DNA of 58,004 nt, the filler included, from Sphacelaria rigidula (lineage: Eukaryota), in NCBI GenBank assembly GCA_964200075.2. It is 9 parts of 9 records of this genome, joined end to end, with 100 filler letters (N's around TTAATTAATTAA, not from the genome) between each part and the next. Parts side by side here need not be neighbours in the genome. Positions count along the whole stretch, not along the records: positions 51,649 to 58,004 come from CAXNAA020020576.1; 8 more parts are not named here. One strand, given 5' to 3'. The position numbers and the translations under genes were made by a program. A model generated the notes under the pieces. The model was given only the letters and a program-made list of their open reading frames with translations, searched no databases and was not told the DNA's origin. Of the stretch, positions 17,476-58,004 are shown piece by piece. How positions within the stretch are numbered: position 1 is the stretch's first letter; every line of letters begins with the position of its first letter.

Positions 17476-17775
17476 TTTTTTTTTGTCGCACTTCGAACCC
17501 CTCCCCTTCCTCGGGATGAGCACGTGGTCTCGAGGGAGCATCACATCTCTCCCCCAGTACACGCCTTACATTTGGGTCTAGGGGATTGGATCAGCGCTCC
17601 CGCACCGCGTCAACTCACGTCAAACAAACTCAGTCGGCTACTTTGTTTACTCCCGTTCTCACGCTTTCCACGAAAAAAAACGACACTACGAAAAAACACC
17701 CAAGGCATCGGGAATCGAACCCTCGTTTTGTCCACCCTACTGGCGACAGTCGGACCATTACACCACCGGTGCGCG
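17476..17775 (-). mobile_element. tRNA-derived SINE family B, near full length
   Basis: Minus strand has A box GGTGGTGTAATGG, B box GGTTCGATTCC, body ...gagtttgtttgacgtgagttgacgcggtgc...gaggaaggggaggggttcgaag and an A-rich tail. Related copies at 20555-20860, 35920-36050 and 52870-57205. Confidence 0.8.
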
Positions 17776-20554: not shown

Positions 20555-20860
20555 CTTCCCTGCCTCGGGACGAGTCCGTGGTTTCAAAGGTGCAGTCCTT
20601 TCTTCCACGGTACACGCCTTGAACTTCGGCATCACGGATGAGATCGACACTGCCACACCGTGTCGACTCTCGTCAAACAAACTCTTCTCTCTCTTCTGCT
20701 ACTCAAGTTCTCACGTTTAAACGTTCTTTTTTGGCGCATATTGGACCCCTCCCCTTCCTCAGGACGAGTCGGTGGTCTCAATGGATCCACTCATCCCTCC
20801 CCGGTATATGCCTTGCATTTTAGTATTGATAGAAGTCAGATACCCCTCCGAGAATGACGA
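20555..20860 (-). mobile_element. Two tandem 3' fragments of SINE family B
   Basis: cctgcctcgggacgagtccgtgg...gactctcgtcaaacaaactc and acccctccccttcctcaggacgagtcggtggtctc match 17490-17640. Confidence 0.65.
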
Positions 20861-35919: not shown

Positions 35920-36050
35920 AAAGTTGACGCAGTGCGGCGGTGCTGGGCCAACCCGCGATACATTACCAAGATGTGTACCAGAGGAGAGACGAGCTTGTCC
36001 GTTGAGACTGCGGGTTCGTTCTGAGGAAGGGGAGGGGTTCGAAGCATGAC
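35920..36050 (+). mobile_element. Diverged SINE family B 3' fragment
   Basis: agttgacgcagtgcgg...gtgtacc...ctgaggaaggggaggggttcgaag matches family B. Confidence 0.6.
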
Positions 36051-51648: not shown

Positions 51649-52142
51649 TTATTCCCCCCGCCAAACAGGGTTCGCTGGGCAAACGCCCCATGGCAAAAGC
51701 CAGGAACAAATAGGCGCCCCCCCCCCCCCCCCCCCCCCCTCCCCTATATCAGAGGATCACTCACCTACCACTATGCGGCACAGTGAAACAACACGCATGC
51801 TTGAATCCATCAAAACTGGGGGTGCAGACAGTCAACATAAAAAAGACTGCCTATTGTAACCCCCACACTTGAGCTCCGGTCACTTGCACACCGCGACAGT
51901 GTTTCATTCTGTCCAGCCAGCCGTTTCACAAAAACGACAAAGCCCCAACAACTTTGGACGATCCGCTAACCCTCGGACCGTTCTCATTTCTGGAGTGCGG
52001 TGCGAACTACCAACACGCAGCAAAACAAAAGATACACACGCGCGCGCACACTCACGCGCGAGAAAGGATATGGTCGCTACTCTTTTCACGCACAGCATTG
52101 AGCTGTATGATGACAGTGGGGATGAAAATAGGTCTCTCTCAC

Positions 52143-52424
52143 CACCAAGATCGAACACGGCCAACACGTAGAGGTCCGCCGTCTCCGCCCCCTCCAGCTC
52201 GCCCCGGAGCATTCTCGTCTCCCGACCGCGCGCTATCGTCGTTGGAAGAAGCAGGGCTGCTGCTGCCGCTGCTGCTGCTGCCGCTGCTGCTGCTGCTGCT
52301 ATTTTCCTCGTGGAACGGTACCGCAACGAAGTGATTGTCGATATAACGATCACCTTGGCGGTTGTCGGACCACGCGTTGAGTACCACGTGGGCCACGCCA
52401 TCAGACACGAACGGTACGGAGCAG
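52143..52424 (-). CDS. Probable internal exon, unknown protein
   Basis: ctgtttcccgtcgcAG|C...TG|GTGAGA defines a symmetric 282-nt exon: CSVPFVSDGVAHVVLNAWSDNRQGDRYIDNHFVAVPF-Ser/Gly linker-PLRVGRVRSW. Confidence 0.6.
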
Positions 52425-52869
52425 CTGCGACGGGAAACAGTACACGGGATGTACACGCACACGCACACGCACACATGCACACACGCACACACGCACACAC
52501 GCACAACCGTGACGTAACGTAAATGGGTAATCATGAATGGCTTATTCGTGATTACAATAAGAGAGGCGGGGATAGACTTGAGACGGTGCGGCATGCGTGC
52601 AGGATCAACATACGCTCGTGGCGTGCCAGCCCTGCCCCAAAGTTTCAGGACTGCTGCGCGGGCATTGGAAGAAATGCATGGTGTTTGCATATATCGCAGC
52701 AATGGAGGCTGCCGGCGTGCGCCACTTGCAGACCATGGGAGTATAAAAGCATGTACCCCCACAAAACTGGAAACTGCTCAGCCAAGAGATAATGTACTGG
52801 CCCTGGATGCACTTGATTTGTTGCTCAAAACCGGCTGGGGGTTCTCCGGGACTACTTCCTTTACATAGG

Positions 52870-53131
52870 TGCCGCGCCTCGGTGATTCAAATTAAATGAC
52901 CCGGCTGTGACCATCGGGGTGGAGAGAGCATTGGTTCGATTCCCGATGCGCTGGGGCTTTTCTTCGAAGTATCTGTGACGTTCACCGTCGAAAGCGTTAG
53001 TATGTGAGCAAACACACTGTTGGCTGAGTTTGTTTGACGAGAGTTGACGCGGTGCAGGAGTGCTGATAAGTTATGACCCGATCCACGAGATCAAAATGCA
53101 CCGCGTGTACCGGGGAGAGATGGGTGGATCC
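52870..53131 (+). mobile_element. SINE family B, 5' part (interrupted by the Copia insertion)
   Basis: B box ggttcgattcc at ~52933 and body ctgagtttgtttgacgagagttgacgcggtgc. Continues at 57146. Confidence 0.75.
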
Positions 53132-53541
53132 TGTGCGCTTGTGAGGTGTTTGATGTGGCCGTGGCGCACTTCCTCCCAGTGCATCGTTTTATAGCGGAGC
53201 AAGGCAATTGTCACGAGAGATCTTGATGGGTTGAGCAGACGACGGACCCGAGTGGGGCGCCGCATCGCTGTGCTTTTCATTATTCAATTAGATGTCACCC
53301 GCTTGTGTACAGCTCTGTCTGGACCTTATCTCTCTGAACCTCAGCCCTAAGCCCCTACTATAGAGCTTGTAATATACAGCCATGGAGCCGTTATGGCTCG
53401 GCTAAATACTGGCTACAGCACTGGTTCCCGGACCGTTCTTGTTGGTACTTTGTACTGGACCGAACTGGCTCCGACCAGGCTGGTTGACTACATGCCCGAG
53501 AATCTGCGTGTGAGATCTATGTTCGATACACAATCTGCGCA
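53132..53541 (-). repeat. 3' LTR (410 bp), with PPT ATGGGGAAG at 53550-53542
   Basis: Direct repeat of 56736-57140, about 92% identical by manual count, with one 5-bp indel. Confidence 0.95.
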
Positions 53542-54225
53542 CTTCCCCATGATCGTACAGCGGTAACACCAGAGAGTTGATGCGATCACACCCAACGTCC
53601 TAGATACGAGACAAATGAATATTTCCATTGAATGCCATAGAAGCCATGTGGTGGACCTGGACCCTCCGGACTCGTCCCGACTTCTGCCGCCTTTTTCGCT
53701 TTGACATCCCTCGTGGGAAACGGCGACTTGGACGTTTGTTGACTTTGTGCGAAGCTGTCTCCTTGAGTGGCATCCCACACGTTCCGGTGGCCCATCCACC
53801 GTCTTCGTCGCTTCCTTTGCCACGGACTGTCCCTTTGCTTCTTCGCCAAGGCTAGAACCCTCCGCGCTCGGCACGAATATATTCTCGAGCTTCGCTCTTC
53901 CGTTATCGCGCAGCGTCTCCGGTGGTTCGGCGATTCGGCCCTGTTCACGATCATCTCCGCTTGAGGAGGCGTGATCCTCCCGTCCGACCTGCTGCCCCTT
54001 TCTTGTCGGCGGTGCCTCCGTCTTTGGGCCTGCGGAGCGCTCGTCCGCGCTTGGAGTCGCATGAGTTACAGGCGCCGCAGGTGGCACCCGTGGTCCCAGC
54101 GCTTCACCGGCCTCTCGGCTCTGAGGCTCGCTGTCGTTCTGTTGAATATCCTCTTCCATGGCCACCTTCCATCTGTCAGCATCAGATCCTACCAGGGCTT
54201 CTCCCGTTCTCGATGGTTCCTGTGG
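53488..54225 (-). CDS. Copia pre-RT motif fused in frame to a charged low-complexity tail with a hydrophobic C-terminus
   Basis: PQEPSRTGEALVGSDADRWKVAMEEDIQ is followed by ~220 open codons ending WLLWHSMEIFICLVSRTLGVIASTLWCY and reading into the LTR. Confidence 0.5.
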   Translation of the reverse strand, partial: PQEPSRTGEALVGSDADRWKVAMEEDIQQNDSEPQSREAGEALGPRVPPAAPVTHATPSADERSAGPKTEAPPTRKGQQVGREDHASSSGDDREQGRIAEPPETLRDNGRAKLENIFVPSAEGSSLGEEAKGQSVAKEATKTVDGPPERVGCHSRRQLRTKSTNVQVAVSHEGCQSEKGGRSRDESGGSRSTTWLLWHSMEIFICLVSRTLGVIASTLWCYRCTIMGKCADCVSNIDLTRRFSGM

Positions 54226-54299
54226 TCAAGTGACGATTCCGCCCCCGAGCATGCAGAACGCGTATTCGTCCTGATCTTGTAGAAGGGTGGCGACGAAAT

Positions 54300-55860
54300 C
54301 ACCGTCATCAGAGCTGCTGAACTCCTAAAGCGCTGCCGTGCATTTTCCCCTCGATGCCGTTGCGCCAGTCGACTGGACCTGCGCAGTACACTATCTGGAG
54401 AAGAGCATTCCGATGATATCGGTTCCTGTGGTGGCTGTCTACCCGGGCCATCATCGCCGTCGATTGGAGCTTCTTTTTCTTCTTCCGGTTCGTCCTTGTC
54501 GTCACTAAGTTCGACCGCCTTCAGCTCCCCCACGATGTCTAGGATCTCGGCCTCTGAATCAAACGTGATGTGTGAAGACTTGAGGAGTTTTGATTCCTGT
54601 ATCAGCCATACATACCAGCAGAGAGAGCGCCGATCGTGCCCCACCAAGATGCCCCGCTTGGCATATGAGTGGAACTCTGCAGCGGCGCCGCGCTGCTGCT
54701 TGTGGCGATGCACCAAGCACTCGGATCCCCAAGCACGAAGCCGGTCGTAGCTGAAAGGCTTCCCTGTCAGCCTCTCACATGGGGTCTCGCCCCCGAGGTA
54801 CTTGTGGGGCATCCCTGCGGTCTTGAATGTCGCGTCCGCCACAGCGAAGAACCAGTGTAGTCCCCTCCGCGTCCCGCTTTCACCAGTTGGCTGCGTGCTA
54901 TCCTCATCAGTTGTTGAATTGCACGTTCAGCAAATCTACTACTTTGCGGTGTCCTCGGAGGTGAACAGCGCCACTTGATCCCACGACCGGTCAGCATGCG
55001 TCAAAATTTAACTGACCGTCCAAGTTCCACAGCGCCGTCTCCGCTGATGTATTTAATGGTCACTCCCTCACGGGCCATTTCGTCGATGTAGGTTCCCGTG
55101 GCGTCAGTGGTAGCATCTCGTGTCTTGAGTCGAACAACATGCTTGTCTCGACCGTCCTCGTCCACGAAAACCTGAAAGTATTTCATGCCCCGTGACAGTG
55201 GCGTGGAAAGACCCTTCAAGGTCAGTATGCAAAACTTCACCTGGTGCTTTGGAACTCCTGCCGCCGCGGCCGTAGCTGAGTGCCCCGGGCTTGCATTCCT
55301 TGCAGACGCTGCAGTGTATCTCGGACGCCACCGTGGTATCAGTGACATCGATCAGCCCATGCTTCTCGAGGTGTTTCATTGCAGCCGGATCGATGTGCCC
55401 TAACGTGTCGTGCCACTGCTTCAATGTAAGGCGCTGCTTCTTGTTTGCGAACGAAGCATGCGCCGACGCCGCATATTTGCCATTCCCCTGCAGCGATACC
55501 GACAGGATCAGCAACCCTCTATTCTCGGCTAGGGGGATCGTCGGCCCATCCTTTCTGAACCGAAGGTAGCTCTCCTTCCTGCCGGAGTCCACGAATTCTC
55601 CTCCGTCACGCCGAATCGTTCCAGTACTCAGCAGCCGGCAAGGTAGTCCAGGGACCCAAAGTACGTCCTTCAGGACAACCTTTGCCGGAGCCTCCTTTCC
55701 CCGAACGCTAACGTGCAATGGGATATCTCCCATTGCGAGCGCCTGCAGCTACCCCTTGTTCCGAAATGTACAGCTTCGATTAACCATACGCGTGTTTCTG
55801 AGATCCTGTTTCCAGGGAGTCATGTGGACATTCGCTCCCGAGTCGCAGAGAATCGATACC
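54300..55860 (-). pseudogene. pol: Copia protease and integrase (frameshifted)
   Basis: Protease ILCDSGANVHMT and LKDVLWVPGLPCRLLS; HHCC WHDTLGH...CSVC; DDE core LHTDLEG / ISGDGA / PQSSRFAERA; C-terminal AKRGILVGHD and LRRSSR. Confidence 0.92.
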
Positions 55861-56057
55861 CCTGTGTGACTGTTGGTCGACGTGCACATGGATACTACTC
55901 GCTCATCCTCGACTACTGTACCACGTTCATCGTCACGAATGCCCTCGGTCTGTCCCTCCTCCCATTATTTCTGCTGTTTTGTGAAGGTGGGAACGTTCGC
56001 GCGGGGCTCATCCCCGGCGGTCGTTCAGCCGGTGGGTTGCCGTTGAGGTAGGAGCGA

Positions 56058-56731
56058 CACTCCCGTCACCTATGATTCCGCTTCAAACAGTTGGCGCATT
56101 GATTGCTATCGAGCCCTAAGTCGGTTTTGTTGCCATCGGTTCTCGATTTGAACGCTGCTGCCTCATCGTGGCGTTCCATGTCAAACCCGAGGTATGCTGA
56201 TGATGCTACGACTGCCCGGTTTAGCTCATCGTACGTCATACCTGGCTGGGTTTTTAGCTGGATGAATATTTGTGGAAGCGCCTCCTCGATCCCGAATAGA
56301 AGGGCTGCCCTCTTAGTCTCCTCGGCTTTGGCGTAAAATCTGCTGATTCTTCTGCAGAATTTCATTGGAGATCCCGCAGTCTTCGTCCCAATGCGAGTAG
56401 TTGTACAGGCCGCTCGTCCTATGCACGTCCTCCGTAGATCCGATGATGGCTGTGGCTGACCGTTTCGTAGCTTGTGCCCGGAGGAACCAACCACAAGGAT
56501 TGCGTATTGCGTTGGTGCGTTTCGTACGTCCTACGCTGGTCGAGTGTTGTGGTCGCTGTCGGAACGGCCGGTGCGGTGTAATCCGGTCGCAGCAGGGGGT
56601 ATAGTCCCTTCCTCCCCACGTATCCAGCTATGGAGAGTCTCCATGCGTCCCATGATTGTTGCGACTGCCCACGAGCGTCCGTCCGGACTGGCAACTTGCG
56701 TGGGTCTGCCTTCATACTCCTCGAGGCTCAT
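56058..56731 (-). pseudogene. gag: Copia gag (frameshifted)
   Basis: ATG lies within the PBS (MSLEEYEGR). N-terminal motif SWDAWRLSIAGYVGRKGLYPLL; zinc knuckle CANCLKRNHR*REC with an in-frame stop. Confidence 0.85.
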
Positions 56732-56735
56732 AACC
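56725..56735 (-). promoter_or_regulatory. Primer-binding site for the initiator tRNA-Met half molecule
   Basis: GGTTATGAGCC directly follows the LTR's CA and is complementary to the anticodon stem-loop GGCUCAUAACC. Confidence 0.85.
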
Positions 56736-57140
56736 TGTGCACTTGTAAGGTGTTTGATGTGGCCGTGGCGCGCTTCCTCGCTGTGCACCGTTTTATAGCG
56801 CAGAAAGGCATTTGTCACGAGAGATCTTGATGGGCTGAGCAGACGACGGACCCGAGCGCCGCATCGCCGTGCTTTTCATTATTTATTTAGATGCCACCCG
56901 CTTGTGTACAGCTCTGTCTGGACCTTATCTCTTTGAATCTCAGCCCTAAGCCCCAACTATAGAGCTTGCAATATAGAGCAATGGAGCCGTTATGGCTCGG
57001 CTAAATACTGGCTACAGCACTGGTTCCTGGACCATTCCTGTTGGTGCTTTGTACTGAGCCGAACTGGCTCCGACCAGGCTAGTTGACTACATGCCGGAGA
57101 ATCTACGTGTGATATCTATGTTCGATACACAATCTGCACA
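56736..57140 (-). repeat. 5' LTR (405 bp)
   Basis: tgtgcacttg...atctgcaca, a direct repeat of 53132-53541. Confidence 0.95.
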
Positions 57141-57145
57141 GATCC

Positions 57146-57205
57146 CTTGAGATCACGGACTCGCCCCGAGGAAGGGGAGGGGTTCAAAGTACGACCAATA
57201 AAATC
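57146..57205 (+). mobile_element. SINE family B, 3' remainder
   Basis: cttgagatcacggactcgccccgaggaaggggaggggttcaaagtacgaccaataaaa is colinear with the 3' end of the 17476-17775 copy. Confidence 0.75.
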
Positions 57206-58004
57206 ATAGAAAAGGTATATGCCGAACATTCACATCGCCCAGACGAAAATTCTCATGTATAAGAAGGTTAAGTACGCTAATTGCATTCCGTACTGCACAC
57301 AGATTAAGCCACCGTGCTTCAGTACAATCACAGATAATTAATGCAGTGTAGGCGATTATCTACACTTGCATGAGCCTTCTGTAAACAGAACAGAACAAAC
57401 ACGGCATGGTACGGTATGGTACAGTATGGTACAGTATAGTACAGCGCAGACTGCTGTACAGTTTCTGAAGAAGGCATTTGTATCATCGACAAAACAACTG
57501 GACGAGCCAATTTAAAAGGCCGTTTCTCTAGTATTGTCCGTTCTAAAGCGGTTACTTTTCAAATGTACACAGCGAGTGCGATTTCAATGCGTTACCGGTG
57601 ATGTGCCCCCACGTTCATATGCATACGCTGTGTTCCGGTTGATCAAACGCTACACTAAAAGTGAGCGTGAAAATCTGGCAGCTCTCCAGTTTCCTCTCAC
57701 CTGCACGGCGCGGTGCCGACCGTTTTCCACTATGTTTCAAACACTCTAACGCCTCCGTATTCTTCGGAAATGATGACGAATATCACTCGCTGGTGCCTCT
57801 GCCGTTTTCCCCACAAGTCTGTTTTTTTCTCTGTGAACGTAACTGGGGTTGTTTTTTACTCTCTCTTGGTGTCCGGTTTAATTCTTTTCTTTTTCTTCTC
57901 TTTTTCGCTGTTTTTATTTCTTCTACTGTAATGGTGAGGCACCCATGAGGCGGTGTATAAGCTGTGACTGTCTCGGGAAGTGGCAATACCAGAAAATAAA
58001 GCAA

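Follow-up and report, generated by a model that had tools for sequence, protein, structure and literature searches.

A Ty1/copia element of Sphacelaria rigidula with an open tail in place of reverse transcriptase, probably from a non-autonomous family

Several kinds of non-autonomous long terminal repeat (LTR) retrotransposon have been described, among them TRIM, LARD, BARE-2 and TR-GAG (accessible text of PMC4350172), and gag-only Copia families, Copia-N1 to N4, are reported from the brown alga Ectocarpus in the accessible portion of PMC12477816. Additionally, the available part of PMC13570524 describes a continuum among those LTR retrotransposons of sugar beet that are non-autonomous, some with decayed POL remnants. 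Here we analyzed a 58,004-nt stretch of DNA from Sphacelaria rigidula (assembly GCA_964200075.2; hereafter "the window"), the minus strand of which contains a 4,009-bp Ty1/copia element at 53132-57140. We consider it likely that this element is one dead copy from a family of non-autonomous ("semi-autonomous") Ty1/copia elements in which reverse transcriptase (RT) and RNase H, together RT-RH, have been replaced by about 590 bp of another sequence. The family retains gag, protease (PR), integrase (INT) and the cis signals, that is, LTRs, a stretch like a primer-binding site (PBS) and a polypurine tract (PPT). The copy itself has decayed since insertion, with 11 lesions and LTRs that are 7.7% apart.

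As in the window family, TR-GAG and the gag-only Copia families are LTR-bounded, partly coding and without RT, and their mobilisation is believed to occur in trans (accessible text of PMC4350172). However, TR-GAG and the Ectocarpus Copia-N elements carry a single gag open reading frame (ORF), whereas the window family also keeps protease, a whole integrase and an ORF that runs into a novel tail; TR-GAG is defined by a Gag-only ORF and no Pol domains, and the protease and integrase domains of the window element place it outside that group. LARD and TRIM likewise have LTRs, a PBS, a PPT and an internal region whose source is unknown, and their amplification takes place in trans (same source and portion), but they are non-coding, whereas about 2.6 kb of the 3.2-kb internal region here is recognisable gag-PR-INT. 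BARE-2 and BARE-1 of barley also form a two-component system, in which a partly coding element needs one protein function of its partner (accessible portions of PMC4350172 and PMC7730604); BARE-2 lacks a functional Gag and has kept Pol, whereas the window family lacks RT-RH and has kept Gag. The sugar-beet families are, in the available part of PMC13570524, fragmentary remnants and mostly small families; compared with these, the window family shows a clean excision of RT-RH, collinear gag-PR-INT, a suggested copy number of the order of 100, and a brown-alga-related lineage. Autonomous Copia elements of brown algae (P0004 and P0012 of Sphacelaria rigidula, and P0016) are 63-78% identical to it over PR-INT and share its domain order and pre-RT motif, but P0004 and P0016 go on into RVT_2 and RNase H and end right after an AD(I/A)LTK motif, neither of which the window element has. 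The RT-less Copia derivative falls within the known continuum of non-autonomous LTR retrotransposons, as a new variant. A Copia family of brown algae with gag-PR-INT alone did not turn up in the literature, which is not proof of absence, most supplements lying outside the literature search.

Structure of the element and its junction

Nine segments of 6,356 nt each make up the window, with N44-TTAATTAATTAA-N44 spacers between them and an extra 10-N run at 1580-1589. Adjacent segments are not contiguous in the genome, and the element lies in the last of them (51649-58004), giving about 6.4 kb of true context; it is the only copy in the window. Its features, with the evidence in brackets, are as follows.

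57141-57145, minus strand: target-site duplication (TSD) GGATC, 5' side (end alignment)
56736-57140, minus strand: 5' LTR, 405 nt, TGTGCAGA...AGTGCACA (repeat detection and end alignment)
56716-56735, minus strand: PBS-like stretch GGTTATGAGCC.., immediately after the 5' LTR and overlapping the gag start (sequence reading)
56066-56718, minus strand: Gag, its CCHC zinc knuckle broken by TGA 56068-56066, plus one frame change and two more in-frame stops (58-71% identity to P0016 and P0003 by tblastn)
55749-55913, minus strand: region of the aspartic protease, with its DSGA motif, and the first part of the Pol beta-barrel domain (Pfam Pol_BBD, E=1.9e-11; 78% identity to P0012)
54450-55748, minus strand: integrase, comprising the GAG-pre-integrase zinc domain, catalytic core and SH3-like domain (Pfam gag_pre-integrs and SH3_retrovirus; 64-78% identity to P0003, P0004 and P0012)
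54142-54449, minus strand: acidic linker and pre-RT motif (..DEYAFCMLGGGIVT*PQEP..AMEEDIQ), with TGA 54228-54226 and a frame change near 54320 (alignment to autonomous relatives)
54139-54145, minus strand: junction, the point at which homology to autonomous elements is lost and RT would be expected to begin (alignment to autonomous relatives)
53761-54141, minus strand: tail part 1, 127 codons, charged and rich in Ser, Gly, Pro and Ala, predicted unstructured, in the same frame in most relatives, with weak codon periodicity
53549-53760, minus strand: tail part 2, frame not conserved among relatives, no periodicity, holding a hydrophobic stretch (53652-53560)
53542-53548, minus strand: PPT GGGGAAG, adjoining the 3' LTR (sequence reading)
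53132-53541, minus strand: 3' LTR, 410 nt, within which the tail ORF terminates at TAG 53490-53488 (end alignment)
53127-53131, minus strand: TSD GGATC, 3' side (end alignment)

The pre-RT motif PQEPSRTGEALVGSDADRWKVAMEEDIQ, encoded at 54225-54142 on the minus strand, aligned to the pre-RT region of P0004, P0016 and P0012. Homology to autonomous relatives stops at approximately 54145-54139, in agreement with a preliminary description of the stretch, which had the motif ending at about 54142, where RT should begin. Beyond this point P0004 continues as MEGLWDQGTF.. into RVT_2, and the window as QNDSEPQSREAGE... When the inter-LTR sequence was searched for domains in each of its three sense frames, X being put for every stop, it returned Pol_BBD, gag_pre-integrs and SH3_retrovirus only, and no match to RVT_2 or RNase H at E<=0.01; the earlier statement that it has no YVDD or RNase H motif stands. 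The same search found RVT_2 in P0016 (E=7e-46) and P0004 (E=7e-34); an autonomous element encodes both RVT_2 and RNase H, and the window element encodes neither. Apart from the pre-RT motif, the RT-RH portions of P0004, P0009, P0008 and P0011 gave E values of 0.12 or worse against any frame of the tail. The frame does stay open past the motif, as had been described, for 217 codons to the TAG at 53490-53488, crossing the PPT and entering the 3' LTR by 51 nt. The thought that such a tail might follow RNase H in autonomous relatives found no counterpart: it did so in none of three (P0004, P0009, P0016), all of which end at most about 25 residues past the AD(I/A)LTK motif.

Both LTRs have TG..CA termini and are flanked on either side by GGATC (57145-57141 and 53131-53127). 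They are identical at 374 of 405 positions (92%), with 31 mismatches, of which 20 are transitions, and five gap columns. Their true starts are 57140 and 53541, as against 57146 and 53547 from the repeat tools, the six extra bases being letters that flank and PPT happen to have in common. We assigned the element to Ty1/copia on these paired LTRs, the 5-bp TSD, and the order gag, PR, INT and pre-RT, which is collinear with P0016, P0003 and P0012 (tblastn, 53-78% identity). The PBS-like stretch is presumably akin to the initiator-tRNA PBS of Copia elements. The named proteins closest to the element came from the brown algae Sphacelaria rigidula and Choristocarpus tenellus. Over the 2,577 nt of gag-PR-INT there are six in-frame stops (at 56421, 56364, 56068, 55751, 55003 and 54228) and five frame changes (near 56320, 55918, 55190, 54857 and 54320). 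Two of the frame changes and the stop at 55003-55001 fall in the integrase region, and the stop at 55751-55749 is just upstream, at the protease boundary. At the position of the linker stop (TGA 54228-54226), the relative P0024 has a G.

Two observations were made on the relatives of this region. The Pfam integrase-core model rve gave no match in P0016, P0021 or P0004 (cut-off 0.001), nor in the window frames (0.01), although HTDL.. and ..SGDG.GE.. stretches are visible at window 54860-55200, and the intact autonomous polyprotein is also without an rve match; the integrase core of this Copia lineage diverges from the Pfam model. The other concerns P0012 of Sphacelaria rigidula, annotated as a 526-residue product on a 9.6-kb contig, which ends in ..DADRWKAAMED at the exact position of the window's junction; a further copy without RT, or simply the edge of a gene model, may account for this. 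ARAGORN called no RNA gene, and the sole Rfam match, mir-1976 at 55635-55688, was sub-threshold (26.5 bits against a gathering score of 71) and was taken as chance.

Recurrence of the junction and propagation of the family

Relatives were sought with a HMMER scan of 1.84 billion representative proteins, using the 245-residue ORF as query (E<=0.001). All 16 matches were short ORFs (76-182 aa) of the same repeat family. Eight of these cross the junction between residues 28 and 29, at 40-71% amino-acid identity, and every one of the eight goes on into the tail and none into RT. Specifically, P0024 and P0025 have the complete pre-RT motif followed by ..EEIQQKDNEPQTREAGE.., while P0023, P0001, P0026 and P0028 begin at the Met of AMEE, and P0033 and P0002 likewise span the junction. 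The other eight matches begin downstream and say nothing on it.

Genomic evidence came from contigs of four public runs (X1, X2, X4 and X6, from three studies) that were placed on the segment at >=80% likeness, numbering 10,339 in X1, 12,490 in X2, 11,283 in X4 and 695 in X6. Run X6, which may consist of RNA, also covered the unique flank and was given no weight as to transcription. Among the 32 pieces listed, at least five contigs bridged 54142 with ample sequence on each side (X1 rec1, X2 rec9, X2 rec10, X4 rec18 and X6 rec26), and X6 rec25 (53413-54110) bridged the tail to the 3' LTR without a break. The six bridging contigs differed from the window by 14.4-17.6%, being about 82-86% identical to it, and X4 rec17, which also covers the tail, differed by 16%. 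The preliminary description had looked to further copies of the junction with different TSDs as the sign of a propagating family; the same junction was recovered in multiple diverged copies, and a TSD for the present copy only. A single copy in a window made of concatenated short segments might suggest a deletion peculiar to this copy or an assembly artefact. With the junction present in eight independent database ORFs and in at least five of the listed contigs from the four runs, we rejected that candidate and regard it as vanishingly improbable.

Summed contig depth over the tail was 852-1,686, as against 7-25 in the unique flanks (X1), approximately 50-150 times deeper, which is a rough guide and not a copy number but suggests that the RT-less family has many copies, of the order of 10^2. 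Integrase bins were in turn two to five times deeper than tail bins; this is compatible with, and no proof of, relatives that share gag-PR-INT but not the tail, for example an autonomous partner.

As other copies differ from this one by some 14-18% in the tail, compared with 7.7% between the element's own LTRs, the deletion would predate the insertion and the template RNA would already have lacked RT. The element was probably RT-less when it inserted, on the strength of this clock-based comparison of divergence; by a rough clock, the lineages sharing the junction would have separated before this copy was inserted. Since the RNA template would have been without RT, RT-RH would have had to come from another element. 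We envisage that the enzyme of a related autonomous element, co-packaged in virus-like particles, could have copied the RT-less RNA, and that Gag, PR and INT may have come from the family itself for as long as it had intact master copies. Integration brought the copy to its site, as the 5-bp TSD and empty paralogous sites show: joints from 53126 to 57141 with five shared letters occurred in 3, 5, 1 and 3 contigs of the four public runs, and these are paralogous copies of a host repeat without the element. Taken with the junction in many diverged copies and the clean TSD, these sites support the earlier suggestion of a gag-PR-INT-only, non-autonomous family that borrows RT in trans.

Several points weigh against this reading. 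The other copies were seen only as short contigs and database ORFs, without flanks or TSDs of their own, the autonomous relatives were seen at the protein level only and come from other records, and no young, intact master copy was among the contigs and proteins examined. The divergence argument assumes a clock, collapsed contigs may be chimeric or derive from other subfamilies, and gene conversion between the LTRs would make the insertion appear younger than its true age. Summed depth does not equate to copy number, and an ORF escapes the protein search unless part of it is read in the query frame. Finally, an open frame of 216 codons is improbable by chance (P=0.0014) and part 1 of the tail shows periodicity (p=0.009), so that at least this part may have a coding role.

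A second RT-less case was found in a sister lineage. The 90% cluster of P0003 contains an autonomous polyprotein of 1,384 residues, P0016, alongside three RT-less forms, P0003, P0020 and P0021 (three records from two sources), which keep an intact ORF of 976-984 codons and have an unrelated tail of 115-123 residues. P0021 is identical to P0016 at 858 of 870 residues up to ..DAFCMM, followed by an unrelated 123-residue tail and no RVT_2. The sister breakpoint lies about 30 residues upstream of the window's junction (AMEEDIQ), and the P0003 C-terminus had no match in any frame of the window's tail. Given the different breakpoint and the dissimilar tail, RT-RH appears to have been lost at the INT/RT boundary at least twice. 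The young sister form, known from proteins alone, may be a genomic derivative or an RNA isoform.

The open tail and its possible sources

In dinucleotide shuffles of the 216 codons the mean number of stops was 5.8 and the probability of an open frame 0.0014, with values of 0.046 and 0.059 for parts 1 and 2 alone. The sense strand is T-poor (16% T), and stop density is therefore low in all sense frames, the other two having only three and six stops. The preliminary description had set the open tail against the lesions in gag and integrase. The difference itself is real, with no lesion in the tail and six stops and five frame changes upstream, but as an argument it is marginal, since the upstream rate (11 in 2,577 nt) predicts 2.5-2.8 lesions for the tail and the Poisson probability of none is approximately 0.06-0.08. 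That the tail is open while the rest decays is suggestive, not compelling. Position-specific composition was detected in part 1 (chi-squared p=0.009; G-rich, T-poor first positions) and not in part 2 (p=0.56). By the element's codon usage, part 1 scored -0.033 in its own frame, compared with -0.131 and -0.158 in the other two and +0.06 to +0.16 for coding controls, which came from the training set. The 10 listed variable positions of the tail, distributed as 2, 4 and 4 over codon positions 1, 2 and 3, were too few, would reflect the decay of a dead copy, and were not used.

Homologues of the tail outside the family were absent among the 1.84 billion representative proteins. Pfam searches with the tail frame, one alternative sense frame and one antisense ORF returned none, a PDB profile search gave a best E of 0.26, and the ESM Atlas had no usable match. 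An alignment of the tail found no relative among metagenome, viral and genome contigs, and scans with P0021, P0016 and P0012 for the DNA of relatives yielded only locus L001, which at 30% identity was not used. The tail showed no similarity to the rest of the element or the window (tblastn, tblastx) and contained no tandem repeat. AlphaFold2 (AF2), run on a 17-row alignment, predicted no secondary structure for residues 32-189, with a predicted local distance difference test (pLDDT) of 41-66, and a helix at 190-226, where the alignment has few rows.

We placed the 16 relatives on the window by tblastn and partly by eye; a single-frame query favours ORFs in that frame, so the frame preference seen in part 1 is partly ascertainment. 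Within part 1 (54141 to about 53761), most relatives use the window's frame, and P0002 and P0032 shift frame. Several diverged copies (P0023, P0001, P0026, P0027) have 100-134 codons of this frame without a stop. Below approximately 53760, P0002, P0029, P0031 and P0034 (by tblastn) and P0026 and P0027 (by eye) are in the window's +1 frame, and three of these six end in ..SYLA(R) at 53595-53601, about 40-50 nt ahead of the PPT. P0032, P0035 and P0036 retain the window's frame past this site, P0001 and P0023 stop at it, and five relatives fall short of it. Conservation of the tail frame, on which the preliminary description had let its interpretation depend, thus extends over the first ~125 codons, that is, part 1, and fails downstream of ~53760.

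The hydrophobic stretch resembling a transmembrane segment (TM-like), IFICLVSRTLGVIASTLWC, is present in this copy, as had been pointed out: it occupies the last ~90 nt before the PPT, its 19-residue Kyte-Doolittle (KD) maximum is 1.79, and the predicted helix covers it at 190-226. In the three relatives that keep the window's frame, KD maxima reach at most 1.18 (P0032 0.51, P0035 0.35, P0036 1.18). P0035 and P0036 span the stretch in that frame and are not hydrophobic there, and P0032 ends just before it. Sireviruses (SIRE1-type Copia) have env-like genes that are separate ORFs downstream of an intact RT-RH, with a hydrophobic segment. The window element resembles them in having an extra, non-Pol coding stretch near the 3' end, but its RT-RH is missing, its tail is fused to the pre-RT motif without a change of frame, and its hydrophobic segment is not shared by relatives. 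The suggestion of an env-like or membrane-anchored extension is unsupported, because the downstream frame varies and the stretch is not hydrophobic in relatives. From the aligned frames we concluded that reading through into the LTR and ending in a hydrophobic C-terminus would be accidents of this copy's frame and not a family trait. The founder's polyprotein frame probably extended over ~125 codons of unstructured sequence (part 1). Indels near 53760 may have put this copy into another frame, one that happens to meet no stop in the 3' untranslated stretch, the PPT or the first 51 nt of the LTR, and the hydrophobic end would be a product of this accident.

A different explanation takes the tail to be a selected coding extension, such as a C-terminal integrase module, a released peptide that would help to compete for helper RT, or even a membrane-anchored or env-like product. 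The low chance probability of 216 open codons, the composition of part 1 with its own frame ranking first of three, the openness of the same frame in P0023, P0001, P0026 and P0027, and the helix that AF2 predicts with confidence at 190-226 all speak for it. However, the tail never occurs in a protein longer than 182 aa among the 1.84 billion representatives, nor in proteins of 430-2000 aa in a set of 5.8 billion, although the latter is weak evidence. Moreover, the frame is not conserved below ~53760 and shifts inside part 1 in P0002 and P0032, the hydrophobic stretch is not conserved, residues 32-189 lack predicted secondary structure, and Pfam, PDB profiles and the Atlas offered no relative. 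By codon usage the tail scores below zero where coding controls are positive, and the signal peptide and separate ORF typical of env-like genes are missing. We judge this explanation improbable.

With regard to the source of the tail, one possible answer, which we rate below an even chance, is that it represents the 3' region of the autonomous parent, from the RNase H stop to the PPT, joined to the pre-RT motif either through one deletion or template switch within the element, or when a spliced subgenomic RNA was reverse-transcribed. Drosophila copia has such a spliced RNA. Spliced subgenomic RNAs are also reported for Copia elements in sunflower (shGAG; accessible portion of PMC7730604). In keeping with a parental 3' region, the tail adjoins the PPT and 3' LTR unbroken in another copy (X6 rec25), part 2 has no coding signature, and a similar event separates P0021 from autonomous P0016. 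Counting against it, the RT-RH proteins of P0004, P0009, P0008 and P0011 match no tail frame, and an untranslated stretch of ~590 nt that is open in frame would be a coincidence. The alternative of a captured host or other mobile-element sequence, capture having also been raised in the preliminary description, acquired through template switching during reverse transcription, would account for a tail that is unrelated to any Copia domain, has weak coding-like periodicity in part 1, and is of higher GC content (0.62-0.63) than the rest of the element (0.52-0.59). We consider capture unlikely, in that all 16 database relatives are short ORFs of the same repeat family, that no host-gene-like homologue was found, and that nothing similar to the tail occurs elsewhere in the window.

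Insertion site and meaning of an RT-less family

The target of the insertion was a host repeat, the left part of which adjoins the 3' TSD.

52898-53126, plus strand: left part of a very-high-copy, SINE-like (short interspersed nuclear element) host repeat, the insertion target, with B-box-like GGTTCGATTCC at 52933 (contig depth, joints and loose ends; end alignment)

Its right part lies at ~57146-57190. Summed contig depth over the repeat was 49,000-70,000, as against 7-25 in the unique flank (run X1), and other copies of it run on into A-rich tails; fragments of the same repeat occur at 17482-17537, 20741-20787 and 35998-36050. It is probably a tRNA-related SINE, and ARAGORN called no tRNA in it. 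Elsewhere in the segment, 57797-58004 was the deepest bin in all four runs (364,365 in X1), and comprises another pyrimidine-rich repeat, ultra-abundant or of low complexity, at the end of the segment. The left flank has simple repeats at 52245-52311 and 52445-52508, a GCN/poly-Ala-like run and a (TG)n run, which were skipped in contig placement.

This copy is dead, and no new envelope or membrane protein can be read from its long ORF and hydrophobic end. Accounts of non-autonomous LTR elements usually have them as non-coding (TRIM, LARD), as gag-only (TR-GAG) or as gag-less (BARE-2). A family with three of five protein functions, in which the polymerase alone is missing, is a cleaner natural experiment on which functions are needed in cis and which can be borrowed. 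If such families recur in brown-alga genomes, this would matter for the annotation of transposable elements there, given that their copies are easily scored as degraded autonomous ones. We put forward, as a speculative and rather doubtful generalisation, that Copia elements of the brown-alga type repeatedly yield gag-PR-INT parasites by excising exactly the RT-RH block at the INT/RT boundary, with a junction that may be splice-derived and ~125 tail codons that may be coding in master copies. If true, capsid, protease and integrase would be these elements' own, and the polymerase alone would be stolen.

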